From the NCBI GenBank assembly GCA_041662745.1, contig JBAZRV010000002.1, forward strand, positions 120,001 through 152,000: a DNA stretch of 32,000 nt, given 5' to 3'. This DNA comes from Patescibacteria group bacterium. Lineage in GTDB: Bacteria; Patescibacteriota; Patescibacteriia; 2-01-FULL-39-33. This document shows, piece by piece, positions 1 to 32,000 of the stretch (the first letter of the stretch is position 1; every line of letters begins with the position of its first letter). The notes under the pieces were generated by a model, which worked only from the letters and a program-made list of their open reading frames with translations, was not told where the DNA came from and did no database searches. A program made the position numbers and the translations under genes.

Positions 1-2
1 AG

Positions 3-1415
3 ATTAATTTTAGCCAAGACCATTCGGAAACAGTTTTGCCCCTAGGCATCTTATCGGTCGGCAGCCATTTGAAACGTTGCGGCTATAAAGTTGAACTGGT
101 AAATATTACGGAAAAACAAATTACTGAGATAGCCGCGATTATCGCCGAGAAAAATCCGCTCTGTGTCGGCTTATCAGTTATGACCGGCGTGCAGACGCGC
201 CAGAGCGCTGAATTATCCAAAAAAATAAAAACTTTAAATAAGGCCATACCAATTATTTGGGGCGGTATTCATCCGTCGCTTTTGCCAGAGCAGTGTCTGG
301 GTGAGGATTACATTGATTTCGTAGTTATTTCTGAGGGAGAGATAACTACGACGGAATTAGTAGAAAAAATAATCAGAGGAGGGGATTTTCATGATGTTTT
401 AGGCATCGGCTATAAGCAAGCCGGAAAAATTACCATCAATCCCAACCGCCCGTTTATTGCCAACCTTGATGATTTCCGCCTTGATTGGTCTTTATTGGAT
501 TTGGAGCTTTATATTTCTCCGTTGAAAAATTTTAAGCGAGTTATTGCTTACAAGGCCTCGCGCGGTTGCCCGTTTAATTGCTCTTTTTGCTATAATAATG
601 CCTTTAATCAGAATAAGTGGCGTGTTTGGTCGGTGGAGGCGGTAGCGGAGGACATTAATTGGCTGAAAGAGCATTATCAGATTGATGCCGTTAAATTTTA
701 CGATGATAATTTTTTTGTTGATAAGAATCGCGCTTGGCAGATCTTAGAAAAAATAAATTTACCGACGCATTTGGAGGTGCGAATTGATACGATTGACGAC
801 GACTTGGCTCAAAAACTCAAAGAGTTTAGGGTTTTTGACATGTTAATCGGCGTCGAGTCGGGCAGCGATCGCATTTTAAGTCTAATCGATAAAAGATTTA
901 CCGTTGATCGTATTTTGGCCGGAGTAAAGCTTTTAGCCAAGTATAATTTACCGGCTACTTATTCGGCGATTGTCGGTTTGCCGACGGAAACCAAGGAAGA
1001 GTTTGACCGAACAGTTGACTTGTTTAATCAAATTAAAAAAATTCAGCCGTCCGCGGTTTTTTCCTTAGGCGCTTATTTGCCTTATCCGGGATCAAAAATG
1101 TATGATTTTGCCATTAAGCAGGGTTTTAAGCCGCCAACTAAAACAGAAGATTGGGGCAAGATTGATCGTTTTAGGAAAGATTTTAGTTCGCCTTGGGTGA
1201 ACGCGCAAAAAGTTTGGCGGATTAGGGAATACTTTAAACTCCTGAATTGGCGGCTTGGTCCAATTATCAAGTGGTTTAAATGGCGCATTGAGCATCGATT
1301 TTTTGCTTGGCCGATAGATATTTATTTAGTGGAATACTTTGGCGGTATAGCTATTGAACAGAGGGGGTTTTTAGGCAAGACACTAAGAAAAATTTATAAT
1401 TTATTAAGAAGATAA
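3..1415 (+). CDS. B12-binding-domain radical SAM protein (class B rSAM type); 5' end runs off the window
   Basis: The frame is open from nt 3. INFSQDHSETV precedes the TTG at 36 and aligns with the LLINP...PPLGL N-termini of the in-window paralogs. An N-terminal Rossmann-like module (LPLGILSVGSHLKRCGYKVELVNI, WGGIHPSL, SEGE) is followed by SRGCPFNCSFC (CxxxCxxC). Confidence 0.85.
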   Translation: MNFSQDHSETVLPLGILSVGSHLKRCGYKVELVNITEKQITEIAAIIAEKNPLCVGLSVMTGVQTRQSAELSKKIKTLNKAIPIIWGGIHPSLLPEQCLGEDYIDFVVISEGEITTTELVEKIIRGGDFHDVLGIGYKQAGKITINPNRPFIANLDDFRLDWSLLDLELYISPLKNFKRVIAYKASRGCPFNCSFCYNNAFNQNKWRVWSVEAVAEDINWLKEHYQIDAVKFYDDNFFVDKNRAWQILEKINLPTHLEVRIDTIDDDLAQKLKEFRVFDMLIGVESGSDRILSLIDKRFTVDRILAGVKLLAKYNLPATYSAIVGLPTETKEEFDRTVDLFNQIKKIQPSAVFSLGAYLPYPGSKMYDFAIKQGFKPPTKTEDWGKIDRFRKDFSSPWVNAQKVWRIREYFKLLNWRLGPIIKWFKWRIEHRFFAWPIDIYLVEYFGGIAIEQRGFLGKTLRKIYNLLRR

Positions 1416-1421
1416 CTGTTT

Positions 1422-2552
1422 ATGAGGATTTTAGTTTTCGGATCAGATCCGGCAATTTTAAATAGTTCCTCCAGCGTCGCTCAAAGAGCTATTGATGCCA
1501 GTATTGGTATTGATAAATATTCAGTAATCGTTCCTAATTATTCCGATGTAATAAAGCAGCATCAAGAAAATCTCTGGATTTACGGAGTCAACGCTAAAAA
1601 TAAAATAGTTGCTTCATATAAGATTTATCGCCTGGCCAATCAGCTTTTAAAAAAAGAAAAATTTGATTTAATTACCACCCCCGATGCTTATTATCTGGCT
1701 TTGGCCGGTTGGCTGTTGACCAGAAAAAATAAAATAAAATTAGAAGTTCAAATCCATGGCTTTGAAAAATTTTTTGGTCTGCGGAAACTCATTGCTAAAT
1801 TTGTTTTACCCCGGGCTGATGCCGTCAGGGTTGTCAGTGAGCGGCTCAGAAGAATGATGGTTAGGGAGTTTGGGGTTGTTAATGATAAAATTACGGTCGT
1901 GCCGGTTTTTTCTCCGCCTTACATAAATAATGATAATAGTAATCAGCCAGCGGCAGAACGCCAAGCGGGCAAGTTTGTTTTTTTAACTGTTTCTCGGTTG
2001 GTCTCTATTAAGAATATTCCTCTGCAAATTGAGGCCATGGCTGAAATGGTAAAAGATTTTCCGCAGGCGGAATTATGGCTGACCGGAGACGGTCCGGAGA
2101 AAGACCATTTGACTGAGCAGATAAACCAACTGAATTTAACCCATAAGGTTAAGCTTTTAGGCCATAAGAATAGGGAAGAGCTCGATGTTTTGTATCGTCA
2201 AGCCGATGTTTTTTTATTGACTTCATTGGCTGAAGGCTGGCCGATTGTGATTATGGAGGCGGCGCGTTATGGTTTGCCGATTATTATGACTGATGTTGGT
2301 TCGGCTGGAGAATTAATCATTAATCAGAAAAGCGGTTTAGTGATCCCCATTAATGATAAGCAGAAATTGATTTCTCAGATGAAGCTACTGATAGTCAATC
2401 AGGAGTTAAGGGAGTTGATCGGCCGGGGAGCCTTAAAGGCGGTAAACAGCATGCCCAATAAGGAGGAGATTATAAGGCTGTATCAGCTGGGCTGGCAGCG
2501 GGCGGTGGCTGATAAAATAGCCGTCGCTGGATCAGTAGAGAAGCAAAATTAA
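1422..2552 (+). CDS. Glycosyltransferase, GT4 (GT-B, Glycos_transf_1 type)
   Basis: 376-aa ORF starting 7 nt after the upstream stop. The C-terminal domain has an EX7E-type segment (SLAEGWPIVIMEAARYGLPIIMTDVGSAGELI). The N-terminus is MRILVFGSD. Confidence 0.85.
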   Translation: MRILVFGSDPAILNSSSSVAQRAIDASIGIDKYSVIVPNYSDVIKQHQENLWIYGVNAKNKIVASYKIYRLANQLLKKEKFDLITTPDAYYLALAGWLLTRKNKIKLEVQIHGFEKFFGLRKLIAKFVLPRADAVRVVSERLRRMMVREFGVVNDKITVVPVFSPPYINNDNSNQPAAERQAGKFVFLTVSRLVSIKNIPLQIEAMAEMVKDFPQAELWLTGDGPEKDHLTEQINQLNLTHKVKLLGHKNREELDVLYRQADVFLLTSLAEGWPIVIMEAARYGLPIIMTDVGSAGELIINQKSGLVIPINDKQKLISQMKLLIVNQELRELIGRGALKAVNSMPNKEEIIRLYQLGWQRAVADKIAVAGSVEKQN

Positions 2553-2556
2553 ATTT

Positions 2557-3594
2557 ATGAAATTATTGGTTTTAACACAAAAAGTAGATAAGGATGATGC
2601 CGTTCTCGGATTTTTCCATAAGTGGTTGGAAAAAATGGCTGCTCGCTGCGAGAGCGTGGTAGTTATTTGCCTTGGTTGTGGTCGTTATGATTTGCCGGTT
2701 AATATCAAAGTGTTGTCTCTAGGGAAAGAACAGGGAGCGAGCAGACTCAGATATGTGATTAATTTTTTTAATTATATTTGGCGGGAACGGCGCAATTATG
2801 ATCGGATTTTTGTGCACATGAATCCGGAATATTTAGTGCTGGGCGGCTGGCTTTGGTTTTGTTTACGCAAGCCAGCTTATCTCTGGTTTAATCATCAATA
2901 TGGCAATTGGCTTGCTCGCTGCGGTCAGATATGGACAACTAAAATTTTTTACACTTCACCCCAATCGTTTTTTGCCGGCAGTTCTAAGAGTATTTCTATG
3001 CCGGTAGGCATCGATACGGATAATTTTAGGCGACAGGGCGATGAGCCGCGTCAGAATAATTCCTGTTTATGTTTAGGTCGGATTTCTCCAGTTAAGAATA
3101 TTGAAGTTTTGATAGAAGCCGTGAAGATGCTTGATAAAAATGGCGTTGGATTGGTAGTAAAAATAATCGGCAGCGCTTTAAATAAAGATCAGGATTATCT
3201 TAAGGCACTGAAGGCTTCTTCAGCCGAATTAGTTTCTATCGGCAAAGTTTTTTGGCAAGAAGAAATTCCTAATTACCAAACCCCTACAATTTATCGCCAA
3301 TATGATTTTTTTGTTAATTTGACCAATTCTGGTTCTTTGGATAAGGCGATTTTGGAGGCCATGGCTTGCGGTTGCCTAACTCTGGTTTCTAATACTTCAT
3401 TAGAAGCGGTTTTGCCTGCCGAGCTGCTATTCAAAGAAAAGGATAGCATTGATTTGTCCCAAAAGATTATTGAAATTCTTGGCTGGACTGAAGAGAAAAA
3501 AGAAGCCCTCAGGGTTTCGTTAGCCGATTACGTCGAAAAAGCACATAGTTTGAATATGTTATTGGATAGAATATTTTTTTATTTGAATTCATGA
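2557..3594 (+). CDS. Glycosyltransferase, GT4-like (GT-B)
   Basis: 345-aa ORF. The N-terminus MKLLVLTQKVDKDDAVLGFFHKWLEKMA and the C-terminal SGSLDKAILEAMACGCLTLVSN resemble group-1 glycosyltransferases. The stop overlaps the next start (ATGA). Confidence 0.75.
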   Translation: MKLLVLTQKVDKDDAVLGFFHKWLEKMAARCESVVVICLGCGRYDLPVNIKVLSLGKEQGASRLRYVINFFNYIWRERRNYDRIFVHMNPEYLVLGGWLWFCLRKPAYLWFNHQYGNWLARCGQIWTTKIFYTSPQSFFAGSSKSISMPVGIDTDNFRRQGDEPRQNNSCLCLGRISPVKNIEVLIEAVKMLDKNGVGLVVKIIGSALNKDQDYLKALKASSAELVSIGKVFWQEEIPNYQTPTIYRQYDFFVNLTNSGSLDKAILEAMACGCLTLVSNTSLEAVLPAELLFKEKDSIDLSQKIIEILGWTEEKKEALRVSLADYVEKAHSLNMLLDRIFFYLNS

Positions 3595-4346
3595 AGCTAA
3601 AATCGTTGCTTAAAAATTTAATTTATCGTTGTTTATATTTTTTTCCGGCCGGTTCTAATCAGGCCGTCATATTAATGTATCATTCTATTGGCGAAAATAA
3701 TGTTTATTTTACCGTTAGGGCGGAAGAATTCTCTAAACAGATGGATTATTTAGTTAAAAATAACTATAATGTTGTAACTTTGAATAATTTGATTAAGCTG
3801 TTAAAAACAGGGACTATTCCGTCTAAAACGGTGGTTTTGACTTTTGATGATGGTTATAAGGATAACTATGTTAATGTTTATCCGATCTTAAAAAAATATA
3901 ATTTTTCGGCTACTATATTTTTGGCCACGGGCCTGATCGGACAAAAGATTCCTAATTCGTCGGGTGAAGCGCTAGCAGCCCTTAGCTGGAAAGAAATTAA
4001 AGAGATGAATCAGGGGGGATTAATTGATTTCCAGCCGCATACGGTTCAACACCAAAAAAATTATCTTAATAATGAAACCAATATTGCCAGCGAGGTTTCT
4101 AATTCTAAGCGGGAAATTGAAGAAGGCCTGCTTAAGACCTGCCAATTATTCGCCTATCCTTCGGGCAAATATAATGACTCAATAATTAAGGTTTTGAAAA
4201 ATTTGGGTTTTATCGCCGCTTTAACTGTCAGTAGGGGTGTGGTTAAAAGTTATGATGATTTATTCCGCTTAAAACGTAATTCTATTGATAGTCGAATAAG
4301 TTTAAATATGTTCAAGACCATTATTAAGCGAGGGAGAATTAATTAA
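3591..4346 (+). CDS. Polysaccharide deacetylase (CE4 / NodB homology domain)
   Basis: CE4 motif 1 LTFDDGYKDNY and motif 2 HTVQH (H-S/T-x-x-H) are present. The start is coupled to the upstream gene by an ATGA overlap. Confidence 0.85.
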   Translation: MKLKSLLKNLIYRCLYFFPAGSNQAVILMYHSIGENNVYFTVRAEEFSKQMDYLVKNNYNVVTLNNLIKLLKTGTIPSKTVVLTFDDGYKDNYVNVYPILKKYNFSATIFLATGLIGQKIPNSSGEALAALSWKEIKEMNQGGLIDFQPHTVQHQKNYLNNETNIASEVSNSKREIEEGLLKTCQLFAYPSGKYNDSIIKVLKNLGFIAALTVSRGVVKSYDDLFRLKRNSIDSRISLNMFKTIIKRGRIN

Positions 4347-4350
4347 AATT

Positions 4351-4998
4351 ATGCATAAAGCTTTTGATTTTGTTAGGGAAGTGCTGAGGGGTAAGACCAT
4401 TTATCGGATTCTATTCAATTGGGAGGTGCAAAAGCATTGCCGGAATTTATCTGGGGAGGTTTTGGATCTGGCAAGCGGCGGTTTGGCTAGTTATTATCGC
4501 TATCTGCCTAAAAATACAAAATTGATAAGGACCGATTATCGACCAGGAAAGGATATTGATTTAGTCGTTGATTTAAACCGGCCATTACCTTTGCCGGATA
4601 ATCAGTATCAAAATATATTATTATTTAACGCGATAAATATTTTAGTAAATACCACTGACGTGTTCAAGGAAATAAATCGTATTTTAACAGTTGGAGGCAA
4701 ATTATTTCTTTCCTCATTATTTATCGCCAATGAGATGCCGGAACCCCACGATTTTAATCGCTTAACTTATGAAGGCATAATGAAACAATTAACGGCCGCA
4801 GGATTTTCTCGGGTGGAAATTTATCGTATAGGAGAACGGGCGACTGCCGCTACCCATATCATGGCCCCTTTTTATCCTTTCAGTTTTATACGCTTGTTTA
4901 TTTATCCTATGGCGATATTGCTTGATCGCTTAATTTCTAAATCAGTCAGAACCAAGTATCCTTGCCCGATCGGTTATTTTGTAATCGCTCAAAAGTAA
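4351..4998 (+). CDS. Class I SAM-dependent methyltransferase (putative)
   Basis: Motif I-like VLDLASGG, then LTVGGKLFLSS (motif III-like) and a hydrophobic C-terminal tail. 215-aa ORF, 4 nt after the upstream stop. Confidence 0.65.
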   Translation: MHKAFDFVREVLRGKTIYRILFNWEVQKHCRNLSGEVLDLASGGLASYYRYLPKNTKLIRTDYRPGKDIDLVVDLNRPLPLPDNQYQNILLFNAINILVNTTDVFKEINRILTVGGKLFLSSLFIANEMPEPHDFNRLTYEGIMKQLTAAGFSRVEIYRIGERATAATHIMAPFYPFSFIRLFIYPMAILLDRLISKSVRTKYPCPIGYFVIAQK

Positions 4999-5014: not shown

Positions 5015-6133
5015 ATGAATAAGTCATTGACATTAAAAAAGATAATTAAGAAAATCGGCATTTATCAGTCGCTGCGAAATAGTTGGGAAAAACTCCAATC
5101 TCGAAAATATCGCGATACTTTGTTTTTGATTGAAAACAAAAAAGATCTGCCTCTGCCCAAAGATATTATTTTCGAGCCAACAACCCGTTGTAATTTAAAT
5201 TGTTGCATGTGTCCGCAACGCGAAGAGCGCAAACAACTAAAACCGGATTTGCCTCCCAGCCAAACCAAGGACTTATTGATTAAACTTAAAAAAGAGCTCG
5301 ATATCAAATCAATTAGTTTGATCGGCGGAGAGGTTCTGGTCAGAAGTGATATCTTGGAAATCATAAAGACGCTCAAAGATTTACATATTAAGGTTTTTAT
5401 TTCAACTAATGGAACATTGATTGATGAAAGATTGGCTGGAGAGTTTAATAAATTTAAGAATATTTCCGGCTTGGCTTTTTCTCTTGATGGCTTAAGGGAG
5501 AGGCACAACCAGATTAGGGGCAAGGATTATGCTTTTGATGGTGTTAAACAGGCCGTGGCTTTGCTTAAAGATGATTTTTCTTTGACCATTAACGCTGTAT
5601 TGATGGATGAAAATCTTAATCAGTTGGTGGATTTAGCCCGACAAATCAAGGCTTGGGGGGTGCCTAATTATTCTTTACAGTTTGAAATGTTTTCTACTGC
5701 CGCTGAAGTGGCTGCATCGGCGAAAATACTAGGGTTAGAGAATCAGGAAGATATTGCTGTAGAAATTAAAGAAAATCAGGATTACAGTTTTTCCCAAGAG
5801 GCGATTAGCGCGATTATTGAGGAATTAAATAAAATTCCCGGTTTAGCTTTGATGATCCAACCGCGTCTTTATTCTCGTTTTCCCGAATTTTATTTAAAAG
5901 GAGAATTAAGGCAAAAAGTAAAATTAGATTGCAAGTATGTTAATACCTTGAGAATTAGCGCTCAAGGGAAAATGATTTTTTGTCCTTTTATCAAAAAAAG
6001 TTTTGGCAGTTTATTAACTAATGATATCGCTAAAGTTTGGAATAGTGCTGAGGTGAAAGACTTCAGGCAAAAACTTTATGCTAATAATTTAACGCCGGTC
6101 TGCAAGCGTTGTTGCCGCTTGGGCGCGAAATAA
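5015..6133 (+). CDS. Radical SAM protein with SPASM/twitch-type C-terminal Cys cluster
   Basis: EPTTRCNLNCCMCPQ (CxxxCxxC). The C-terminus has CKYVNTLRISAQGKMIFC (Cx11Gx4C) plus PVCKRCC. Confidence 0.85.
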   Translation: MNKSLTLKKIIKKIGIYQSLRNSWEKLQSRKYRDTLFLIENKKDLPLPKDIIFEPTTRCNLNCCMCPQREERKQLKPDLPPSQTKDLLIKLKKELDIKSISLIGGEVLVRSDILEIIKTLKDLHIKVFISTNGTLIDERLAGEFNKFKNISGLAFSLDGLRERHNQIRGKDYAFDGVKQAVALLKDDFSLTINAVLMDENLNQLVDLARQIKAWGVPNYSLQFEMFSTAAEVAASAKILGLENQEDIAVEIKENQDYSFSQEAISAIIEELNKIPGLALMIQPRLYSRFPEFYLKGELRQKVKLDCKYVNTLRISAQGKMIFCPFIKKSFGSLLTNDIAKVWNSAEVKDFRQKLYANNLTPVCKRCCRLGAK

Positions 6134-6137: not shown

Positions 6138-7274
6138 ATGAAGATTATATATTTAGCTAATTTGCGGTTACCGACTGAAAGGGCCCATGGTTTGCAAATC
6201 ATGAAGATGTGCGAGTCTTTCGCCGAAGCAAAAAATGAGGTGGAATTGGTGGTGCCGCAACGGTTTAATAAAATTAAAGAAGATTATTTCTCTTATTATA
6301 ATGTTAAGGATAATTTTAAGGTTACTAAGTTGCCCTGTTTTGATCTATTGCCGCTCGATCGCTGGTTGGGTGTTTTTGCGTTGTGGTTAGAGCTGACGAC
6401 TTTTTTGCTGGCAGCTAAGGCGTATTTATTTTTTAGGGTTTATGGCATGATTTATACCCGCGAGCCGTTAGTCGGTTTATTTTTTAAGAATTGCATTTTA
6501 GAGGTGCACTCATTGCCCAAGTTTAATTATTATTTTTTCCGTTTAGCTGTTAAGAGGTCTAAATTATTGATAGTTTTAACCGAAGGGATAAAACAAGCGT
6601 TAATCACGCAAGGAATTAGCGCTGATAAAATCATGGTTTCTCCTGATGCTGTCGATTTACAGCAATTTAAAACAGAATTAAGCCAGGCTGAAGCGAGAGA
6701 AAAATTATCCTTGCCCTTAAAATCAAAAATTATCGTTTATACTGGACATTTATATCCCTGGAAGGGAGTTGACGTGTTAGCTGAAGCGGCGTCTTTATTG
6801 CCGGCTGATTGCTTGGTGGTTTTTGTCGGCGGAGTTAAGGAGGATATTGATGAATTTAGAACTAAATATGCCAGCGTAAAAAGTATTTTAATTTTTGGTC
6901 ATCGACCACATCAAGAAATGCCGATTTTTTTGAAGGCGGCTGATGCCCTGGCTTTGCCTAATAGCGGTAAGGAGGAAATTTCCAGAGTTTATACTTCACC
7001 CATGAAATTGTTTGAATATATGAGTAGTGGTACGCCCATAGTCGCTTCGGTTCTGCCGTCATTAAGGGAAATTTTAGACAATAAAAATTCTTATCTAGTT
7101 GAACCGGATAATGCTCAGGCTTTGGTTGATGGTATTAAATATTTATTAAATAATGAAGATATCGGGGGAAAATTAGCAGCTGCGGCTTTGCAAAAAGTAG
7201 AACAATACACTTGGGTTAAGCGAGTAAAAAATATTTTAAATTTTATTAGCACCGCTGATCAGCGATTTAAATAA
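6138..7274 (+). CDS. Glycosyltransferase, GT4 (GT-B)
   Basis: The N-terminus is MKIIYLANLRLPTERAHGLQIMKMCESFA. The C-terminal SPMKLFEYMSSGTPIVAS is typical of group-1 GTs. 378 aa. Confidence 0.8.
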   Translation: MKIIYLANLRLPTERAHGLQIMKMCESFAEAKNEVELVVPQRFNKIKEDYFSYYNVKDNFKVTKLPCFDLLPLDRWLGVFALWLELTTFLLAAKAYLFFRVYGMIYTREPLVGLFFKNCILEVHSLPKFNYYFFRLAVKRSKLLIVLTEGIKQALITQGISADKIMVSPDAVDLQQFKTELSQAEAREKLSLPLKSKIIVYTGHLYPWKGVDVLAEAASLLPADCLVVFVGGVKEDIDEFRTKYASVKSILIFGHRPHQEMPIFLKAADALALPNSGKEEISRVYTSPMKLFEYMSSGTPIVASVLPSLREILDNKNSYLVEPDNAQALVDGIKYLLNNEDIGGKLAAAALQKVEQYTWVKRVKNILNFISTADQRFK

Positions 7275-20931: not shown

Positions 20932-20938
20932 TTTTACC

Positions 20939-24745: not shown

Positions 24746-26158
24746 TTATATTTTGAGCAGTTTCAGACCCGCTTTAAAATTATTTTTTAAATTATTCCAG
24801 TTTCTTATTTCTTTTAATCTTCGCCAGATATAGCGGGGAGCTAAGTAATATGAACGATAAGCTTGAATTAATGTTTTAAATAACTGTTCGCGAGTAAAAT
24901 TTTCTTCCCAGGCCGGTGGATGAAAATCTGCCTGAGGATGTTTAGAAAATTCACGCCAATAATCCTGTTTGATAATGCCTTCTTTTAGGCCTTTTAAATA
25001 CAAGTCAGTCGCTGGAAAAGGGGTAAGTACGGAAAAGTGCACATAATCAGGAAATAGTTCTTTAGCTAGTTTAATTGTTTCTTTAATATCATCTTCGGTT
25101 TCCGTTGGTGAGCCGATCATGAAATAACCCGCTGTCTCAATGCCGGCTTTTTTGGTTAATGCAAAAGCTTTTTTGATCATCGGAATTGTAATGCCTTTTC
25201 TTAAAACATTAAGAATTTTTTCGGTGCCGGCTTCTACTCCATAATGGATTCTGGTGCAACCAGCTTTTTCCATTAATATTAGTAATTCTTCATCAACCGT
25301 ATTAACTCGAGCGCGAATATCCCAATTGAGGATTATATTTTTTTCCATTATCAATCGGCAGATGTCTACCACTCTTTGACGATCAATCGTAAAAGTATCG
25401 TCGTAAATAAAAACCTCTTTAATGCCCAGGGCGGCGATCTCGGCCAATTCCTGGACGACATTTTGTGCTGAACGTGCTCGGAAAATTTTGCCTAAATGGG
25501 GCCGATCGCAAAAGAGACATTGATAAGGACAGCCACGGGAAGTGAACATTGTGGTTGTCGGATTTTTTTGCGCGATGATGGAATAGTATTTTTTGTAAGG
25601 GGTTAAGGTACGCGCTGGAAATGGCAGATCGTCTAACTGCATAATCAAATCTCGGCAACCGTTATTAATGATATTACTCGCTTGTCTGAAGACAATACCC
25701 TTAATCGTTGGCCATTGTTCCGGTTGTTGGAGATTATTAATTAAATCATAAAAAGGCTGTTCGCCTTCACCCAGGATTAAAAAATCAATTTCTGGATTAG
25801 CCATCGTTTCTTCCGGGTAAATATTGACATGCGGGCCGCCGAGGACAATGGGAATTTCTGGCTGAGCCGCTTTAATTTTTTTGGCTGCCATCAAAACATC
25901 AATAATCGTGAAAGTCATAGCGGTAATGCCAACGAGTTCTGGTTTTTCTAATTTAATGATTTCTGCTAGCGCATCAAGATTGATTTTTTCTACTGGGCAG
26001 TCGATAATTTTTACTTCATGGTTAGAATGTTTCAATAGGTAGCCAGCCAGATACATAAGTCCTAGTGGTGGTAAAAAATCCATACCCGATTCTAGCTCCT
26101 TAGGCATATCGCTTTCTATAATGTGTTGAATGGGGGGATTAATCAAGAGTATTTTCAT
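24746..26158 (-). CDS. B12-binding-domain radical SAM protein
   Basis: MKILLINPP (ATG at 26158; an in-frame TTG at 26173 is the ORF-track start). LPPLGLMYLAGYL, LGGPHVNI, LGEGE, SRGCPYQCLFC, and a C-terminal YYLAPRYIWRRLKE. Confidence 0.9.
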   Translation of the reverse strand: MKILLINPPIQHIIESDMPKELESGMDFLPPLGLMYLAGYLLKHSNHEVKIIDCPVEKINLDALAEIIKLEKPELVGITAMTFTIIDVLMAAKKIKAAQPEIPIVLGGPHVNIYPEETMANPEIDFLILGEGEQPFYDLINNLQQPEQWPTIKGIVFRQASNIINNGCRDLIMQLDDLPFPARTLTPYKKYYSIIAQKNPTTTMFTSRGCPYQCLFCDRPHLGKIFRARSAQNVVQELAEIAALGIKEVFIYDDTFTIDRQRVVDICRLIMEKNIILNWDIRARVNTVDEELLILMEKAGCTRIHYGVEAGTEKILNVLRKGITIPMIKKAFALTKKAGIETAGYFMIGSPTETEDDIKETIKLAKELFPDYVHFSVLTPFPATDLYLKGLKEGIIKQDYWREFSKHPQADFHPPAWEENFTREQLFKTLIQAYRSYYLAPRYIWRRLKEIRNWNNLKNNFKAGLKLLKI

Positions 26159-26987
26159 AGAGGTATTTTTCAATTGATTGGCAATCGTATGAGTTTAATA
26201 AATAAATTAATTTTTTCCAACTATTCTTAGTATTGAAAAATTTTATGATTTTTTTTATGATTGGCATTGAAATATCTGGCGGTTTGGCTAGGAAATCAAA
26301 GGGATGAAAATGGATAGTGGTTGCACCTTGAGTGGTCTTTTTTGTTAACATTTTTTTAAAAATTTTCCAAGGTGTAATTCTTATGTAGATACCGCCGGTC
26401 ACTGGCCAATTAAGAAGTGACCCGCTATATACGGCCAAAGGAAACTCGTATAGATGTTTGTTTATTAAATAGGGCAATCGCGGCGCTTTCTTGATACCGT
26501 AGGTGCTGTTTGGAAAAATCAGGGACGTGAGTCTTGGTAATTTTAGCGGAAAAACAGAGGAGTCATATCTTAACTGGTTGTCTTCAAGCACTTTTATGAC
26601 CCAATTTTGGTTATCATTAGTTAAAGAAAAATTAACAGCGCGATGACCCAGTACGGCCTTTCCGGTTAAAGAAAGTATTTTTTCTTTCATGATCTTAATT
26701 TCTTGATCAAAGTTTTGATAATTCTTTACCCAAAGTGGGCGATGATCAAAGGAGTGAATGGCAATTTCGTGTCCATGCACAGCGAGTTTTTTTATCATCG
26801 CCGGTTCTTGTTCAATAACTTTCCCAGTGACGAAGAAAGTCGCAGTCGCTTGGTTGGATTTAAGAGCGGCAATCAGTTGATCGACAAATTCTTCTAAATG
26901 TTCAGTTTCTGATCCATTAAGATGGGGTTGGAGGGATAATGATTCAAACCAGTATTCAAGATCAAAAGTCAGAATGAGTTGTTTCAT
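26139..26987 (-). CDS. Polysaccharide deacetylase family protein (CE4-like)
   Basis: LTFDLEYWFE at the N-terminus, ATFFVTGKV, HGHEIAIHSFDH (H-S-x-x-H), GHRAVNFS. It resembles the FDVEDYF-type CE4 subgroup. Confidence 0.75.
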   Translation of the reverse strand: MKQLILTFDLEYWFESLSLQPHLNGSETEHLEEFVDQLIAALKSNQATATFFVTGKVIEQEPAMIKKLAVHGHEIAIHSFDHRPLWVKNYQNFDQEIKIMKEKILSLTGKAVLGHRAVNFSLTNDNQNWVIKVLEDNQLRYDSSVFPLKLPRLTSLIFPNSTYGIKKAPRLPYLINKHLYEFPLAVYSGSLLNWPVTGGIYIRITPWKIFKKMLTKKTTQGATTIHFHPFDFLAKPPDISMPIIKKIIKFFNTKNSWKKLIYLLNSYDCQSIEKYLYENTLD

Positions 26988-26999: not shown

Positions 27000-27875
27000 T
27001 TAGCGGTAGATTTCTCTTCTTAAGGCGGCAATCTGATCGGCTAAAAGTCCAAAAAAGAAAATAATAATAGCGGATAAGACAACTAAAATAGTACTTTTGG
27101 CGATGTTATTCATAATTAATCCGGCAATTAGCATAATTAATCCGGTTAGCCCCAAAAGCAGGCCGATTGGCAGGAAAAATCTAAGTGGGGAAAAGAGCAT
27201 TGTTAGACGCATGACCAGGATTAGGTAAGTAAAAAATTCCCTGGGCTTAACCATGCTTTTGCCACCGCCTCGTTTGTCGATTTGGATTGGAATAAATTTT
27301 ACATTAAGCCCTTCTTTTATGAAAGCGAAAAGGGAAGTCGTAGAGCAAGAAAAACCATTAGGTAGAATGTGTGAGAACCTAAGAAATTCATTTTTTTTGA
27401 TCAACCTTAAACCGCAATTAAAATCAGAAATTTTTTTGTTTAAAAGGTATATCGCTAACCAATGTATAAGTTTTTTTCCGGGTTGCCTTAGCCAGGGGCC
27501 TTGGTAGCCGACGCGTTCACCGGAAATCAGATCGAAATTATCCATAAAGGGAACCATTTCTTTAATGTATTCCGGGCGATGTTGGCCGTCTGCATCAAAA
27601 AATATTAGCCACTCGGACTGGGCAGTTTTGGCGCCGGTTTTGAGCGCAGCACCATAACCCTTATTGTAGGGTTGAACGATTATTTTTATATCGGTAATAT
27701 TTTTTAAAATATCCGAAGTATTGTCAGTTGAAGCATCATTGACGACAATAATCTCGAAATTTAATGACAAATTGTTGATGGAATTTTTAAGCCCCTCGAT
27801 AGTTTTGCCGATCGTCTCCGCCTCATTGTAGGCAGGTATAATGATTGAAAGGGATTTTTCTGATGTTTCTGGCAT
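27000..27875 (-). CDS. GT2 polyprenyl-phosphate glycosyltransferase (GtrB/ArnC/DPM1-like)
   Basis: LSIIIPAYNEAETIGKTI, VVNDASTDNT, FFDADGQH, and two C-terminal transmembrane helices (LFSPLRFFLPIGLLLGLTGLIMLIAGL..). This is the architecture of GtrB-type enzymes. Confidence 0.85.
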   Translation of the reverse strand: MPETSEKSLSIIIPAYNEAETIGKTIEGLKNSINNLSLNFEIIVVNDASTDNTSDILKNITDIKIIVQPYNKGYGAALKTGAKTAQSEWLIFFDADGQHRPEYIKEMVPFMDNFDLISGERVGYQGPWLRQPGKKLIHWLAIYLLNKKISDFNCGLRLIKKNEFLRFSHILPNGFSCSTTSLFAFIKEGLNVKFIPIQIDKRGGGKSMVKPREFFTYLILVMRLTMLFSPLRFFLPIGLLLGLTGLIMLIAGLIMNNIAKSTILVVLSAIIIFFFGLLADQIAALRREIYR

Positions 27876-27883: not shown

Positions 27884-28879
27884 TTAGGATTTATTAAATT
27901 CAACATGCCAACCCATAAAATCAGATTGACTTAGTGAACAATTCTGGCATAGCTTATATTTTTTGCATAAACCATCTTTTCTAACTTGTTTTGCTTCGGG
28001 GCTGAAGAATTGTTTCAACAATTTCGATCCTTTAATATTAGGCATTTTGACATCGGTATTCACATCAATACAGCAAAGTCCCAGATCGCCATTCCAGCAA
28101 ACAACGGCCTGAGTCAGCGGTACGGTGCAGACGGTTTTTTTGATTTTTGATTTTTTTCGTAAATATTTTTCATTTTTTGGCAGTAGATACTGGTATTTAT
28201 CACGCATCTCCAGTGTTGTCACCGAACCCAAGCTTAAGGATTTAAATTGGATGCTGTCAGCCCCAATGGATCGTGCCCAATCCAGGATTTTAGTATTTTC
28301 ATTTTCCGAAAACGATGTTAATAGGGATTGAATACAAACGCTCGGATACTGACGATTCAAGTTGCGTTTTATTGTTAAGAAATTTTCAATATTTTGTTTA
28401 ACTGTTTCAAAATTAGAGCCAAAACGGTAGGCCTCATGTGATTCTTTAGTGGCGCCATCAAGGCAGAGATGAATTAATTTTAAATCCGCCGCTATTATTT
28501 TTTTTGATAATTCTTCTGATAGCATCATGGCGTTGGTGCTTAAGAAGGTGTCATGACTATGCTGGCTGGCATAAGCAATAAATTGATCGATTTGAGGATG
28601 AAGCAATGGTTCGCCGGCAAAAATAAAAGTTATTCGCGGCTTATCTTGAAATTCTTTAAATTCGTCAATAATTGATTTATACATTTCAAAATCCATAAAA
28701 CCTCGTTCGCGGTTCATGGCAAAGTTCGTGGGACAGACCGGACAACGCAGATTACAATTATTTGTCACTTCAATCGCAATATCCTTAGGCGACTTGTCAA
28801 AGTTGCTTAATGGATAAAAGTTAGCCATGAGGCCAGCTATATCCCAAAAAAATTGAGATTTTTTAAGCTGTTTTATCAT
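27884..28879 (-). CDS. Radical SAM protein with SPASM-type C-terminal Cys cluster
   Basis: EVTNNCNLRCPVCPT (CxxxCxxC). The C-terminus has CTVPLTQAVVCWNGDLGLCC (Cx12Gx4C) plus GLCKKYKLCQNC. Confidence 0.85.
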   Translation of the reverse strand: MIKQLKKSQFFWDIAGLMANFYPLSNFDKSPKDIAIEVTNNCNLRCPVCPTNFAMNRERGFMDFEMYKSIIDEFKEFQDKPRITFIFAGEPLLHPQIDQFIAYASQHSHDTFLSTNAMMLSEELSKKIIAADLKLIHLCLDGATKESHEAYRFGSNFETVKQNIENFLTIKRNLNRQYPSVCIQSLLTSFSENENTKILDWARSIGADSIQFKSLSLGSVTTLEMRDKYQYLLPKNEKYLRKKSKIKKTVCTVPLTQAVVCWNGDLGLCCIDVNTDVKMPNIKGSKLLKQFFSPEAKQVRKDGLCKKYKLCQNCSLSQSDFMGWHVEFNKS

Positions 28880-28949: not shown

Positions 28950-30299
28950 TCACTGTCCTCGGCCGCCAAAAACAACCCCAATCGTCTTTAAGGTGATGCT
29001 TAAATCAAGAAGCAGCGAGCGGTTTTTTATATAATATAAATCATATTTTAGTTTTTCCACAGTTTCCTTTTGTGAACCGCCGTAAGCCGGACCCAGTAGC
29101 TGTGCCCAGCCGGCCAGTCCTGGTTTGACTAAGAGCCGTTCGCTGTAGAATGGTATCTCTTGCGCTAGGGTAGCAGTAAATTCCGGTCGTTCCGGCCTGG
29201 GGCCGATCAGTGACATTTCGCCCCGGAGAATATTAAGCAATTGAGGAATTTCGTCCAACCTGGTTTTTCTCATTATCCGGCCGAAACGGGTAACGCGCGC
29301 GTCATTTTTTGTCGCCCATTGAGCGCCGTTTTTTTCGGCATCCTTGACCATGGAACGGAACTTCATCGCCAAGAACTCCTTGCCATTTTTGCCCACCCGG
29401 ATTTGCCGGAAAATAACTGGTCCAGGGCTTTCTATCTTAATAATTAAAGCGATAAACGGCATTAGTGGGGTAGCAACTATTAAACCGGCAATTGCTAGAA
29501 TAACGTCTATTAGGCGCTTGAAAATCTCATAGGATTTTTTGGAGTTTTCAGTCAGGTTTTCCAAAAACCAGCCCAGCTCAATGGATTCTACCGGAACTTT
29601 CTGCGCAATGGTCTCGTAAAAATCAGTTAACCGATGCACGTCAATGCCCAGTGACAAGCAGTCAAAAATTTTCTTGGCGGTTGAGGCATCAGCATGCAGG
29701 GTATTATCGGCAGTTAAAATATCAATATTATTATCTATGCAATATTTTTTTAGATCTTCAGGTATCTGGCTGCTTACTTGCGCGACATAGCCCAACTGAG
29801 GCCGTTTTTTTATTTCTTCCAGCAGTTCGGCGGATAACGGATTATTGCCGATAATCAATACGTGGTTGGCGATTTGCGGCGATTTGATTAAACCGTAGAA
29901 TATTTTACGCCAACCAAATAAGAGAATAAAAGTTACAACCAAATCAATTATCAAGACCCTCTGCGGTTTAATTGAGGGGAAAAGTGGTGCGAGGAAATAA
30001 AATAAAAGGACAGCGATAATGCCGTTGATGATTATGGCTCGGCCGTAATTAGTCAAAAGCGAAAAATTATTGTAACTGATTTTAAGTTCGTAAAAATCAC
30101 TGATATAAAAAACCAATAGCCAAGCCATAAAGATAAATAAAAACGCTCCAGCATGGGTCGGCCAGTTTTCTGATGTGGTATTGCCCCAGTAACGCAAGAC
30201 CAATGTTAAATAAAGCGCCAGATAAAGGCAGCCAATGTCGCCCAAAAACAAGAAGAATTTTTTGGTTTTTAGTATAAAACCAGTCATAGGATTAATCAA
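28950..30299 (-). CDS. Polyprenyl-phosphate sugar-phosphate transferase (WbaP/CpsE-type initiating phosphoglycosyltransferase)
   Basis: N-terminal TM helices, a central Rossmann-like segment (HVLIIGNNPLSAELL) and a C-terminal bacterial sugar transferase domain (KRLIDVILAIAGL..., FRQIRVGKNGKEF, KFRSM, DEIPQLLNILRGEMSLIGPRPERPEF). The start is TTG at 30299 or ATG at 30287. Confidence 0.9.
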   Translation of the reverse strand: MINPMTGFILKTKKFFLFLGDIGCLYLALYLTLVLRYWGNTTSENWPTHAGAFLFIFMAWLLVFYISDFYELKISYNNFSLLTNYGRAIIINGIIAVLLFYFLAPLFPSIKPQRVLIIDLVVTFILLFGWRKIFYGLIKSPQIANHVLIIGNNPLSAELLEEIKKRPQLGYVAQVSSQIPEDLKKYCIDNNIDILTADNTLHADASTAKKIFDCLSLGIDVHRLTDFYETIAQKVPVESIELGWFLENLTENSKKSYEIFKRLIDVILAIAGLIVATPLMPFIALIIKIESPGPVIFRQIRVGKNGKEFLAMKFRSMVKDAEKNGAQWATKNDARVTRFGRIMRKTRLDEIPQLLNILRGEMSLIGPRPERPEFTATLAQEIPFYSERLLVKPGLAGWAQLLGPAYGGSQKETVEKLKYDLYYIKNRSLLLDLSITLKTIGVVFGGRGQ

Positions 30300-30310: not shown

Positions 30311-30339
30311 TTTATACCATATTTAGGAAGAAAAAACAA
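30311..30339 (-). promoter_or_regulatory. Promoter candidate for the minus arm (TTGTTT-17 nt-TATAAA with upstream TG)
   Basis: On the minus strand: TTGTTT (30339-30334), a 17-nt spacer ending in TGG, and TATAAA (30316-30311). It lies about 12-24 nt upstream of the candidate starts. Confidence 0.4.
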
Positions 30340-30340
30340 G

Positions 30341-30369
30341 TTTTATCTTAATTTAATTTGTGTTATAAT
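30341..30369 (+). promoter_or_regulatory. Extended -10 promoter candidate for the GtrA-family gene (TGTTATAAT)
   Basis: TGnTATAAT at 30361-30369 and a weak -35 (TTTTAT, 30341-30346). The ATG at 30396 lies 27 nt downstream. Confidence 0.4.
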
Positions 30370-30395
30370 GAAACAGGGTCAAATGCCCGCTTTTT

Positions 30396-30827
30396 ATGTT
30401 AAAGACGTTAAAGGAAAAAATTTACCTGTTGCCGTTATTCAAGCGATCATTATTCAGGCAATTCATTAAGTTCTGCTTGGTTGGCACATCCAATTTCTTT
30501 GTTGATTTGGGCGTATATTGGCTGATGACTCGTTTGTTCGGCCTTCATTATCTTATTGCTTCGGTTATTTCTTTTTCCGTAGCCGTTACTTGGAGTTTTG
30601 AATTTAACCGTAAATGGACTTTCCGCCATCATAACAATAATCTAAAGCGACAGTACGTTAAATTTTTTATTGCCAATATCGTAAGCTTATCATTGAACTT
30701 GAGCCTTTTAAGCTTATTAATTGAATTAGCGCATGTCCCCGATTTGTGGGCCAAGACCCTTTCCGCTCTTATCGTGGCTATTTTTAATTTCAGCCTAAAC
30801 CGTTTTTGGACCTTTCGTCGCCAATAG
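30396..30827 (+). CDS. GtrA family membrane protein (polyprenyl-phosphate-sugar translocation family)
   Basis: 143 aa with four hydrophobic segments. FIKFCLVGTSNFFVDLGVYW and the C-terminal FNFSLNRFWTF are typical GtrA-like signatures. Confidence 0.8.
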   Translation: MLKTLKEKIYLLPLFKRSLFRQFIKFCLVGTSNFFVDLGVYWLMTRLFGLHYLIASVISFSVAVTWSFEFNRKWTFRHHNNNLKRQYVKFFIANIVSLSLNLSLLSLLIELAHVPDLWAKTLSALIVAIFNFSLNRFWTFRRQ

Positions 30828-30828: not shown

Positions 30829-30858
30829 TTGTTTGGCAATAAGGAATTATGTTATAAT
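30829..30858 (+). promoter_or_regulatory. Promoter candidate (TTGTTT-18 nt-TATAAT with TG extension)
   Basis: TTGTTT at 30829-30834 and TGTTATAAT at 30850-30858, about 45 nt upstream of the 30904 start. Confidence 0.4.
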
Positions 30859-30903
30859 TTAAGTGTTAAGTTTTAGACTTTAGAAATTTTAACCATCAAG
30901 CCT

Positions 30904-31944
30904 ATGCCAGTTAAGAAGGCGATATTTGATAAAAAAAATATTTTGGTCGTCGGAGGAGCCGGATTTGTCGGTTCCAATCTTTGCGATGAACTGGTCAAGA
31001 CCGCCAAAGTTATCTGTCTTGATAATTTTATTACCGGCGATCAGTCCAATATCGCCCATCTGTTAGCCAATCCTGATTTCAAGTTTATAAATCATGATAT
31101 TATAAATCCGATTGAATTGGAAAGTCGTCCGGAATTAGCCGAGTTTAAAGTTGCTTTTCAGGGGGTGCAGGAAATTTATTTCTTGGCTTCGCCGACATCG
31201 CCCAAGGCTTATGTGGCACATCCGATAGAAACATTGTTAGTCAATTCAGTCGGCTTACGACACGCTTTGGATTTGGCGGTTAAGTACGAATCATCTATTT
31301 TATTCGCTTCGGCGCCGGCGGTTTATGGCGCCGGCACCGGTCCCATGCCGATCAAAGAGGATTATGTCGGTCCGGTTGATCAGTTCGGACCGCGCGCCTG
31401 TTATGCTGAGGCCAAGCGTTTTGGCGAGGCTTTAGTTAACAATTATCGTTTGACTCATAAGGTAAACACCAAGATAGCCAGGATTTTCAATTGCTATGGT
31501 CCGCGTTTGAGCTTAACCGACGGCCGAATGATTCCAGAAATGATTTCTGCCGCTTACAGCGGAACGGCAATCACTGTTTATGGCCAGGAAAGCGAGTTTG
31601 CTTCTTACTTTTATATTACCGATTTAATCCGCGGATTGATGAAATTGATGGAAAGCGGGGAAAGCGGTCCGGTCAATATGGCATCGGAATGGAAGATGGG
31701 CGTAACCGAAATCGCCAAAAAAATCATTGCCTTGACTAATTCTAAATCAGTGATTGAGTTTAAGGATCGTCCGGCTCATTTTGAAGCCCAGCCCCTGGCT
31801 AATATTTCTTTGGCTAAAGAAAAATTGGGTTGGTTCCCGATAATTTTAATGGATGAAGGCTTGCAAAAGACCATTGATTATTTAAGCGCGCAAAAGGGGA
31901 TTAGGCGTCCGGAAACAACCCTCGGTTCCGGCCGGGCGATTTAG
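30904..31944 (+). CDS. Extended SDR, UDP-glucuronate decarboxylase (UXS/ArnA-C)-like but with non-canonical active-site segment
   Basis: VVGGAGFVGSNL (GxxGxxG), CLDNFITG, CYAEAKRFGE (YxxxK), RIFNCYGPR, LAKEKLGW. The position of the canonical STSEVYG reads ASAPAVYG. Confidence 0.8.
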   Translation: MPVKKAIFDKKNILVVGGAGFVGSNLCDELVKTAKVICLDNFITGDQSNIAHLLANPDFKFINHDIINPIELESRPELAEFKVAFQGVQEIYFLASPTSPKAYVAHPIETLLVNSVGLRHALDLAVKYESSILFASAPAVYGAGTGPMPIKEDYVGPVDQFGPRACYAEAKRFGEALVNNYRLTHKVNTKIARIFNCYGPRLSLTDGRMIPEMISAAYSGTAITVYGQESEFASYFYITDLIRGLMKLMESGESGPVNMASEWKMGVTEIAKKIIALTNSKSVIEFKDRPAHFEAQPLANISLAKEKLGWFPIILMDEGLQKTIDYLSAQKGIRRPETTLGSGRAI

Positions 31945-31947
31945 CTT

Positions 31948-32000
31948 ATGAAATTGGCGATAATTATTCCGGCTTATAACGAAGCGGAAAAAATAAGCTC
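31948..32000 (+). CDS. GT2 glycosyltransferase, 5' fragment (runs off the window)
   Basis: MKLAIIIPAYNEAEKIS shares the IIIPAYNEAE N-terminal motif with the GtrB-like GT2 at 27000-27875. Only 17 codons are visible. Confidence 0.55.
   Translation, partial: MKLAIIIPAYNEAEKIS

Follow-up and report, generated by a model that had tools for sequence, protein, structure and literature searches.

Nine radical SAM genes in a probable cell-envelope glycan locus of a Patescibacteria group bacterium

We analysed a 32,000-nucleotide (nt) stretch of DNA, hereafter the window, from a Patescibacteria group bacterium (GCA_041662745.1, contig JBAZRV010000002.1, positions 120,001 to 152,000). Its 28 genes give a coding fraction of 98%; nine of them encode radical S-adenosylmethionine (SAM) proteins (rSAMs), which take up 36% of the bases and lie among genes for glycosyltransferases (GTs). 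The window is probably the core of a cell-envelope glycan locus, in which the nine rSAMs serve as integral tailoring enzymes acting on lipid-linked sugar intermediates. The rSAMs are assigned to the glycan pathway because of three independent lines of evidence, namely domain fusions, conserved synteny and a broader pattern among related clusters. The initial annotation had proposed a surface glycan or glycolipid with radical-tailored sugars, and this is still the best-supported reading: the N-terminal domains match a B12-binding model, the proteins reach the cutoff of no characterised subfamily, and the rSAM and GT genes are inherited together.

Domains, fusions and conserved neighbourhoods

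All nine rSAMs matched Radical_SAM (PF04055), with E-values from 4e-13 to 2.5e-28 and scores of 50-100 bits against a Pfam cutoff of 29.5. As first annotated, each of the nine open reading frames (ORFs) carries the CxxxCxxC motif, in the forms CPFNCSFC, CPYNCIFC, CPNNCIYC, CPNDCIFC, CAHNCIHC and CPYQCLFC in the B12-type proteins (B12_1 to B12_6) and CNLNCCMC, CNSRCLMC and CNLRCPVC in the SPASM-type proteins (SPASM_A to SPASM_C). The predicted Rossmann-like, B12-binding modules were recovered at the N-terminus of all six B12-type proteins (PF02310, 43.6-88.3 bits, cutoff 32.1), which share GG(P/T/I)H, an invariant Asp and GEGE-like motifs. The other three passed the SPASM model PF13186 (33.2, 24.1 and 32.1 bits, cutoff 21.5). 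The seven-cysteine SPASM motif corresponds to two auxiliary clusters; SPASM_C has seven C-terminal cysteines, whereas SPASM_A and SPASM_B have five each and would be twitch-like or partial SPASM proteins, so that the original SPASM label stands by domain match for all three and needs this qualification for two. The six B12-type paralogues share a pairwise identity of only 25-36% and are therefore old lineages and not recent duplicates; recent amplification was rejected on this ground.

Comparison with solved structures placed the closest relatives among enzymes that act on aminosugars or cyclitols. The AlphaFold2 (AF2) model of B12_4 (predicted local distance difference test, pLDDT, 92.5) gave AprD4 (PDB 6FD2) as its best full-length Foldseek match, with TM-scores of 0.76/0.80, followed by the cobalamin enzymes QCMT, OxsB, TsrM, CysS and TokK (0.62-0.73). 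The best solved homologue of SPASM_C is BtrN, an aminocyclitol dehydrogenase.

The first gene of the window is a B12-type rSAM, as annotated; its ORF is cut by the window edge, however, and is the tail of a larger fusion. The complete gene (L087:6458-9994 in our extended upstream locus) begins about 2.1 kb upstream of the window and encodes 1178 aa, with a methyltransferase domain at residues 78-231, GT4 at 318-646, B12-binding at 720-827 and Radical_SAM at 893-1048. A counterpart in a relative (P0122) is 74% identical to it. Other relatives carry a GT4-GT4-B12-rSAM protein (P0123) and a GT4-B12-rSAM protein (P0185, 23% identity). When 1.84 billion representatives were searched exhaustively with HMMER, fusions in the reverse order emerged as well, B12-rSAM-GT4 (P0254), B12-rSAM-GT9 (P0259) and four B12-rSAM-methyltransferase proteins. 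These fusions echo gene adjacencies in the window, where B12_3 lies 7 nt from the GT9 gene and MT_c adjoins B12_5.

Synteny was examined in two blocks, and both are co-inherited with their rSAMs in relatives. For the left block, a locus about 74% identical (L173) has the order fusion, GT4, GT4, CE4, a 215-aa gene, SPASM, GT4 and B12, followed by a GT4::TM574-like fusion. Its 215-aa gene stands where MT_a stands in the window and has no Pfam match; L005 holds a further MT_a homologue (93 bits). For the right block, B12_4 orthologues with 42-73% identity were inspected on six independent contigs (L002, L003, L004, L169, L170 and L171). A small GT2 and a polytopic membrane protein (PMT, PMT_2, YfhO or a TM574 orthologue) are encoded on all six, and further B12-type rSAMs on all except L169. 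Most have UPF0104 or GtrA, and often a SPASM rSAM, a polyprenyl glycosylphosphotransferase (PGT), methyltransferases, and a CE4 or an AsnB-like amidotransferase. Orthologues of B12_6 (516-593 bits, phmmer) adjoin those of B12_4 in L002, L003, L004 and L170; TM574 orthologues lie beside this pair in L002 and L170, and L170 has contiguous orthologues of B12_4, B12_6, B12_5, MT_b and TM574. A GT2_b orthologue stands beside six B12-type rSAMs in L114. Altogether, at least seven related loci and the window have one to six B12-type rSAMs, with or without a SPASM rSAM, between GT2 and flippase/GT-C genes. The expectation that rSAM and GT genes would be co-inherited is borne out by this synteny and by the fusions to GT4 or GT9.

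An AsnB-like amidotransferase gene (GATase_6/7, 664-681 aa) adjoins the GT2_b-type gene at L002:6579-8585, L169:4578-6572 and L171:17134-19179. Its place in L002 and L169, immediately between the GT2 and B12-rSAM genes, is the one that CE4_b takes in the window. Since it replaces CE4_b in these relatives, a uronic acid substrate is suggested there; lipid-linked sugars might accordingly be pre-activated in alternative ways, by uronate amidation or by de-N-acetylation.

The membrane-associated parts of the locus agree with a lipid-linked pathway. GT2_b aligns over about 250 aa with the structures of ArnC, archaeal dolichol-phosphate-mannose synthase (DPMS) and GtrB, whereas ordinary GT2s match only their first ~110 residues. 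Its best NCBIfam models are AglJ, ArnC, PgfS and PpgS, all below their cutoffs, and its C-terminal transmembrane helices lie at about residues 219-280. TM574 gave an AF2 model (pLDDT 90.2) whose top Foldseek matches in the PDB are all GT-C enzymes (STT3/AglB/PglB, ArnT, ALG9/12, AftA/B and Pmt4), and a profile-profile comparison linked its family only weakly to PMT-like proteins (75% probability over 77 columns). The predicted structure shows a GT-C fold; the WWDxG motif of oligosaccharyltransferases (OSTs) is absent from TM574. The three components of a polyprenyl-phosphate-dependent glycosylation system are present together: a polyprenyl-phosphate GT2 with C-terminal transmembrane helices, small flippases (GtrA and UPF0104) and GT-C proteins (GTC_a and TM574). 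An initiator, Wzx and Wzy, as in Wzx/Wzy-dependent loci, are also found, Wzy being a 771-aa Wzy_C protein whose gene lies some 8 kb upstream of the window on this contig (L087); no chain-length regulator or export component was detected in the window or in the inspected 10-kb flanks.

In a relative about 64-74% identical, TM574 is fused to an N-terminal GT4 (P0188, 982 aa; JGI contig Ga0172371_10008230, L173:10613-13274). Judged from its domains, this protein would combine a cytoplasmic GT-B and a membrane GT-C enzyme in one polypeptide.

To place the window among other clusters, contigs were scanned with an alignment of B12_4 orthologues, and 160 loci with 30-40% identical homologues were sampled among the matches listed. 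Close B12_4 orthologues were absent from the listed matches of the genome and metagenome contig scans, which gave these 30-40% identical paralogues instead. Statistics cover the 106 sampled loci of at least 10 kb, which come from metagenome-assembled genomes (MAGs) of many phyla, including the Candidate Phyla Radiation (CPR), DPANN, Omnitrophota, Elusimicrobia and Bathyarchaeia. At least three rSAMs are encoded in 40% of them, at least five in 12% and at least seven in 3%. GT homologues occur in 64% of the loci with three or more rSAMs vs 33% of those with a single one, and rSAM number correlates with GT presence (Spearman 0.28, p=0.004). The window has nine rSAMs in 32 kb, seven of them within about 21.6 kb. 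Its rSAM content had been described as far outside the usual pattern, which holds against characterised O-antigen and capsule loci and does not hold against uncultured anaerobes. As far as we found, the window is an extreme case of a widespread and seemingly undescribed pattern. Tentatively, and with slightly less than even confidence, we propose that CPR, DPANN, Omnitrophota, Elusimicrobia and other uncultured anaerobes share a new enzymology: B12-type and SPASM rSAMs, often fused to GT4 or GT9 or else set in ArnC/GtrA/GT-C modules, would functionalise C-H bonds of polyprenyl-linked sugars in several ways (C-methylation, deoxygenation, carbocycle formation) and give heavily C-modified surface glycans of a kind not yet observed chemically.

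A denser cluster was seen in an Omnitrophica contig (UBA6253, DJVP01000008.1; L049), with about 10-11 rSAM ORFs (7 B12-type, 4 SPASM-type) in 17.6 kb, together with a GT2_b-like and a CE4-like gene. One TM574 homologue (P0222) is labelled Nanoarchaeota, and clusters of B12-type rSAMs and GTs occur in DPANN MAGs (L026, L032, L037, L053 and L055). This hints that glycan-tailoring genes are shared between CPR bacteria and DPANN archaea.

Proposed pathway and competing readings

The gene content can be arranged as two modules. In module 1 (left, 1-15806), a repeat unit would be assembled on a polyprenyl-diphosphate carrier by the PGT (28950-30299), four GT4s, GT9, a GT2, Wzx and the upstream Wzy. 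B12_1, fused to GT4 and methyltransferase domains, together with B12_2, B12_3, SPASM_A and SPASM_B, would modify the sugars right after their addition at the cytoplasmic face. Module 2 (right, 15831-30827) would be a three-component side-branch pathway like ArnC-ArnD-ArnEF-ArnT or GtrB-GtrA-GtrC. Here GT2_b is predicted to form a polyprenyl-phosphate-(N-acetyl)hexose, which CE4_b would de-N-acetylate. B12_6, B12_5, B12_4 and SPASM_C could then perform radical C-H chemistry on the lipid-linked sugar, and MT_b and MT_c could methylate heteroatoms. UPF0104 and/or GtrA would flip the product, and the GT-C enzymes (15831-17603 and 17607-19331) would transfer the sugar to the polymer outside the membrane.

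For the B12-type proteins, cobalamin-dependent C-methylation of unactivated sugar carbons is the leading candidate chemistry, though short of an even chance; cobalamin-independent dehydration or rearrangement is appreciably less probable, and other or mixed chemistries make up the remainder. By analogy with BtrN, the SPASM and twitch proteins would most likely catalyse oxidation or epimerisation.

Several points weigh against this scheme or parts of it. None of the nine rSAMs reaches the curated NCBIfam cutoff of any named family; the families tested were BchE, HpnJ, HpnR, PhpK, BzaD, QCMT/MJ_0865, ApyD, AprD4, TIGR04072, TIGR04295 and the SPASM equivalogs. The highest scores were 250.2 for HpnJ (cutoff 577.6) and 249.7 for BchE (cutoff 481.35), the others being lower, so that by this measure no protein falls into a characterised non-glycan subfamily. 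Because no curated threshold is reached, chemistry cannot be transferred by homology. Sub-threshold NCBIfam similarity extends to lipid-modifying rSAMs (ladderane-type TIGR04072, HpnR and GDGT-MAS/Tes), and peptide maturation is the commonest role of SPASM enzymes. The step order of module 2 is our reading of gene order and of the Arn and Hpn analogies only. The GT enrichment was obtained by phmmer with window proteins against six-frame ORFs, with no matched random-genome control. An Rfam scan found no cobalamin riboswitch in the window. With regard to B12 dependence, AprD4, the best structural match of B12_4, does not bind cobalamin (PMC12931638). A further argument, that CPR bacteria lack cobalamin pathways, was dropped, as cobalamin and thiamin modules are reported as exceptions among the missing vitamin pathways in Patescibacteria MAGs (PMC8672522).

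The alternative that survives best keeps the same locus and substrates. The N-terminal domains would be cobalamin-free, AprD4-like Rossmann modules, and the enzymes would be radical dehydratases/deoxygenases or HpnJ-, Cds- or OxsB-like rearrangement enzymes that produce deoxy or carbocyclic sugars anaerobically, not C-methyltransferases. We consider this unlikely. AprD4 is the top solved-structure match by sequence (1.6e-31) as well as by full-length fold, the leading NCBIfam similarities, BchE and HpnJ, are both non-methylases, and the GT2_b-CE4_b-B12_6 arrangement parallels HpnI-HpnK-HpnJ (PMC13459092). Non-methylating enzymes also sit in the largest, unexplored group of the sequence similarity network (SSN), and according to a 2026 review no feature of sequence or structure tells methylases and non-methylases of this group apart (PMC12931638). 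However, the AprD4 model covers only the rSAM half of the window proteins (from about residue 153-178), whereas the models for BchE, HpnR, PhpK, BzaD and KedN5 extend across the N-terminal domain, in which PF02310 scores 44-88 bits against a cutoff of 32. The TM-scores to cobalamin-bound OxsB, CysS and TokK (0.69-0.73) are nearly as high as those to AprD4, no AprD3-like dedicated reductase partner is evident, and each characterised SSN group contains C-methyltransferases (PMC12931638).

It is less probable again that the rSAMs alter the lipid, by methylation, cross-linking or cyclisation of the polyprenyl carrier or of scavenged membrane lipid tails, and so give a glycolipid with an unusual lipid part. 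A range of rSAM lipid-modifying chemistry is known (PMC13459092). The proteins show sub-threshold similarity to TIGR04072, 'lipid biosynthesis B12-binding/radical SAM' (105-149 bits), as well as to HpnR and Tes/GDGT-MAS, and the conserved MprF-type flippase-like UPF0104 gene adjoins B12_4 orthologues. Nevertheless, the fusions join rSAMs to GT4 and GT9 catalytic domains, and a sugar-acting CE4 or AsnB-like gene stands directly between GT2_b-type and B12-type genes. In addition, none of the loci carries genes for making fatty acids, isoprenoids or glycerolipids, and the best solved homologues are the aminosugar and cyclitol enzymes mentioned above.

Very unlikely, in our view, is a role of the rSAMs, particularly the SPASM proteins, as peptide or protein maturases, with the GT-C proteins as protein glycosyltransferases and a surface protein (S-layer or pilin) as the modified and glycosylated product. 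The top structural matches of TM574 are indeed the oligosaccharyltransferases STT3, AglB and PglB; yet TM-scores near 0.55 indicate no more than a GT-C fold in general, and the OST motif is missing, as noted above. Similarly, the SPASM proteins resemble SkfB and many maturases of ribosomally synthesised and post-translationally modified peptides below threshold, but the 98% of the window occupied by the 28 listed genes leaves no room for precursor peptides, and the GT fusions tie the B12-type rSAMs to glycosyl transfer. A protein acceptor for the finished glycan is conceivable, but would not turn the rSAMs into protein maturases. An anti-phage or conflict system of GT4 'conflict' glycosyltransferases and viperin-like rSAMs is scarcely credible and was rejected: GT4-conflict exceeded its Pfam cutoff on GT4_a and GT4_d and PADLOC matched pVip (~50 bits) and PDC-M51A (37-79 bits), but on the same residues the generic GT4 and rSAM models match more strongly, so that these matches reach only superfamily level (with PADLOC, that of the rSAM core), and they stand beside a complete PGT/Wzx/Wzy/GT-C glycan assembly logic.

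Relation to known systems

AprD4, the radical SAM 1,2-diol dehydratase of apramycin (aminoglycoside) C3'-deoxygenation, acts on an aminosugar and resembles B12_4 in its Rossmann-like N-terminal domain and rSAM barrel. Their identity is only 22%, and the window proteins score 61-131 bits with NF033070 against a cutoff of 500. Unlike the window, whose context is a lipid-linked envelope glycan, AprD4 belongs to an antibiotic pathway, in which its substrate is a soluble pseudodisaccharide and the reductase AprD3 is required.

GenK, GenD1/GntE, Fms7 and MoeK5 methylate unactivated carbons of (amino)sugars, and MoeK5 acts between GT steps of a phosphoglycolipid pathway. They share the N-terminal B12-binding domain and the CxxxCxxC core with the B12-type proteins of the window. 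In contrast to these proteins, which have no family-level match, they belong to actinomycete secondary metabolism, with one or two per cluster. We found no description of GT fusions, or of six paralogues per envelope-glycan locus, for GenK, GenD1, Fms7 or MoeK5. These class B (cobalamin-dependent) rSAMs are listed in PMC12931638.

In the HpnI-HpnK-HpnJ series, a GT and a deacetylase are followed by an rSAM that performs ring contraction of lipid-linked glucosamine (PMC13459092). The window has the same gene order in GT2_b-CE4_b-B12_6, and both this series and the calditol synthase Cds resemble it in the succession of GT, deacetylase and B12-domain rSAM on a lipid-anchored (amino)sugar. Among NCBIfam models, HpnJ ranks first or second for each of the six B12-type proteins, at 131-250 bits against the cutoff of 577.6. 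The systems differ in that HpnK is not a CE4, hopanoid genes are absent here, the lipid is presumably polyprenyl phosphate, and the product would be passed to a GT-C enzyme. HpnI-HpnK-HpnJ and MoeK5 are precedents for rSAM action on lipid-anchored sugars.

The combination of a polyprenyl-phosphate GT2, GtrA and GT-C is shared with ArnC-ArnD-ArnE/F-ArnT, GtrB-GtrA-GtrC, CsbB-GtcA-YfhO and PpgS-Rv3632-Rv3779, and the CE4 gene beside GT2 recalls ArnD, the deformylase of a lipid-linked sugar. Into this three-component module the window inserts a CE4, three B12-type rSAMs, a SPASM rSAM and two methyltransferases. To our knowledge, no three-component glycosylation system described so far contains radical SAM enzymes. 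TIGR04295 ('B12_rSAM_oligo') is an uncharacterised hypothetical equivalog from a 12-gene rhizobial cassette with GTs for putative oligosaccharide biosynthesis; B12_2 scores 126 bits against its cutoff of 400 and is not a member.

The general idea of rSAM sugar tailoring is already known from antibiotic and hopanoid pathways. Known examples come from only a few antibiotic and lipid pathways (GenK, AprD4, BtrN, MoeK5 and HpnJ), and none is known from envelope polysaccharide assembly. Full-text literature searches returned no account of GT::B12-rSAM fusions and none that places B12-type rSAMs in loci for envelope polysaccharides or three-component glycosylation, whether in CPR bacteria or elsewhere, and absence from a search is no proof that none exists. 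The largest groups among about 84,000 B12-radical SAM sequences are unexplored according to the 2026 review (PMC12931638). The locus, its GT fusions and the polyprenyl-phosphate-sugar module offer these enzymes a concrete, testable substrate class and, if the reading is true, would show what some members of the largest unexplored group do. The formation of C-branched, deoxy or carbocyclic sugars on lipid carriers, should it occur, would represent new glycobiology and a source of new biocatalysts.

CPR hosts typically have very small genomes, and the retention of at least 43 kb with nine oxygen-sensitive, cofactor-hungry enzymes would imply strong selection on surface chemistry. Such chemistry could bear on how episymbionts attach to their hosts, evade phages or take part in immune-like recognition, and the cobalamin source of these organisms becomes a question.

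Layout and boundaries of the locus

The window proteins are identical to the consecutive NCBI entries MFA6227912 to MFA6227938, on a contig of 238,918 bp, and the public annotation of these entries reads only 'radical SAM protein' or 'hypothetical protein'. The Patescibacteria label of the source derives from MAG binning. The 90%-identity cluster of the window epimerase includes one Candidatus Buchananbacteria protein, and homologues of TM574 and of the GT4 domains come overwhelmingly from Patescibacteria lineages, with one from Nanoarchaeota; the host is accordingly placed in the CPR.

The genes are listed in Table 1. The count of 11 glycosyl or phosphoglycosyl transferases given at first is corrected to 10 (four GT4, two GT2, one GT9, one PGT and two GT-C). 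The accessory set was confirmed: PGT, Wzx, GtrA, UPF0104, two carbohydrate esterase family 4 (CE4) proteins and three methyltransferases, one of them weak. PGT scored 362.8 with TIGR03025 (cutoff 295.55). Tight spacing, annotated as 0-25 nt, applies to 23 of the 27 gene junctions (-35 to +26 nt), while the remaining four gaps measure 70-151 nt. Some start codons are ambiguous, with public calls of 465, 475 or 482 aa for B12_4, 470 aa for B12_6 and 314 or 331 aa for SPASM_C; the 35-nt overlap of B12_6 and CE4_b shrinks to about 20 nt with the 470-aa start of B12_6.

Table 1. Genes of the window, with positions, strand and the evidence for each assignment.
Feature	Positions	Strand	Evidence
B12_1, B12-binding + radical SAM	1..1415 (ORF 36-1415)	+	Pfam; CPFNCSFC; C-terminal 459 aa of the 1178-aa fusion
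GT4_a glycosyltransferase	1422..2552	+	Pfam Glycos_transf_1 1.6e-37; kept beside fusion in L173
GT4_b glycosyltransferase	2557..3594	+	Pfam; kept in L173, L005, L010
CE4_a polysaccharide deacetylase, PgaB/IcaB-like	3591..4346	+	Pfam 2.8e-28; NCBIfam
MT_a, 215 aa, weak class I methyltransferase similarity	4351..4998	+	Pfam Methyltransf_11 1.3e-4
SPASM_A radical SAM + SPASM/twitch	5015..6133	+	Pfam; CNLNCCMC; 5 C-terminal Cys; kept in L173
GT4_c glycosyltransferase	6138..7274	+	Pfam
B12_2 B12-binding radical SAM	7296..8648	+	Pfam; CPYNCIFC; B12-rSAM at equivalent L173 position
B12_3 B12-binding radical SAM	8650..10065	+	Pfam; 7 nt upstream of GT9 gene
GT9 heptosyltransferase-like	10073..11221	+	Pfam 8.9e-14; under all NCBIfam cutoffs
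Wzx-type flippase (Polysacc_synt)	11239..12597	+	Pfam; ~10 transmembrane segments
GT4_d glycosyltransferase	12594..13763	+	Pfam
GT2_a, soluble type	13753..14709	+	Pfam; no transmembrane segments
SPASM_B radical SAM + SPASM/twitch	14718..15806	+	Pfam; CNSRCLMC; 5 C-terminal Cys
GTC_a polytopic PMT-like GT-C	15831..17603	+	PMT 23.7 bits, cutoff 22.7; 9 transmembrane segments, GT-C-like spacing
TM574 GT-C-fold membrane glycosyltransferase (predicted), 574 aa	17607..19331	+	no Pfam match above threshold; AF2/Foldseek
B12_4 B12-binding radical SAM	19483..20931	+	Pfam; orthologue contexts; AF2/Foldseek
UPF0104 / LPG_synthase_TM flippase-like	20912..21901	+	Pfam 3.6e-38; passes TIGR00374; beside B12_4 orthologues in L002, L004, L169
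MT_b class I SAM methyltransferase	21907..22554	+	Pfam; orthologue in L170
MT_c class I SAM methyltransferase	22578..23279	-	Pfam
B12_5 B12-binding radical SAM	23306..24733	-	Pfam; orthologues in L170, L114, L103
B12_6 B12-binding radical SAM	24746..26173	-	Pfam; orthologues paired with B12_4 orthologues in L002, L003, L004, L170
CE4_b cytoplasmic CE4 deacetylase + DUF3473	26139..26987	-	Pfam; nearest NCBIfam XrtA-system deacetylase, below cutoff
GT2_b polyprenyl-phosphate-sugar synthase type (ArnC/DPMS/GtrB/AglJ-like)	27000..27875	-	Pfam, NCBIfam and PDB matches; orthologues beside B12-rSAMs in L002, L169, L171, L114
SPASM_C radical SAM + SPASM	27884..28879	-	Pfam; CNLRCPVC; 7 C-terminal Cys; best PDB match BtrN 4e-14
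PGT, polyprenyl glycosylphosphotransferase (WbaP/WcaJ-type initiator)	28950..30299	-	Bac_transf 2e-67; passes TIGR03025
GtrA-family small membrane protein, putative polyprenyl-P-sugar flippase	30396..30827	+	Pfam 1.5e-32
NAD-dependent sugar-nucleotide epimerase/dehydratase	30904..31944	+	Pfam; opens block shared with L002 (GtrA-epimerase-GT2-DUF2304-GT2-SIMPL)

The glycan locus extends beyond the window on both sides and spans at least 43 kb. Upstream (L087) lie the Wzy_C gene, two GT4s, a UDP-sugar dehydrogenase, a PMT_2 GT-C and a small GT2; downstream follow a small GT2, DUF2304, a second GT2, SIMPL and then a serine recombinase (L085). Rfam and tRNA scans of the window gave no RNA genes and no riboswitches, and a scan of it for promoter and terminator consensus sequences gave no signal above shuffled controls. 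The only sizeable gap within the long plus-strand array is the 151 nt before B12_4 (19332-19482), which may hold an internal promoter that splits the repeat-unit genes from a B12_4-UPF0104-MT_b unit.

CPR bacteria are generally thought to lack lipopolysaccharide. The window, from such a bacterium, has a GT9 gene, whose product reaches no heptosyltransferase cutoff.

The intergenic region between the divergent PGT and GtrA genes (about 30300-30395) coincides with the end of a 150-kb contig in ENA assembly ERZ27249449, where a separate 12-kb contig starts. On its right, the block GtrA-epimerase-GT2-DUF2304-GT2-SIMPL is shared with the 73% identical relative (L002), and the left side is unlike. 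A conserved flank seems to give way here to a hypervariable glycan region, or the break may reflect strain heterogeneity. The large serine recombinase (L085:5341-6825; Resolvase/Recombinase/Zn_ribbon_recom) lies about 5 kb past the right end of the window and about 1.1 kb beyond SIMPL, the last gene of the conserved downstream block. Given this gene, the glycan locus may adjoin or sit inside a mobile or variable region.

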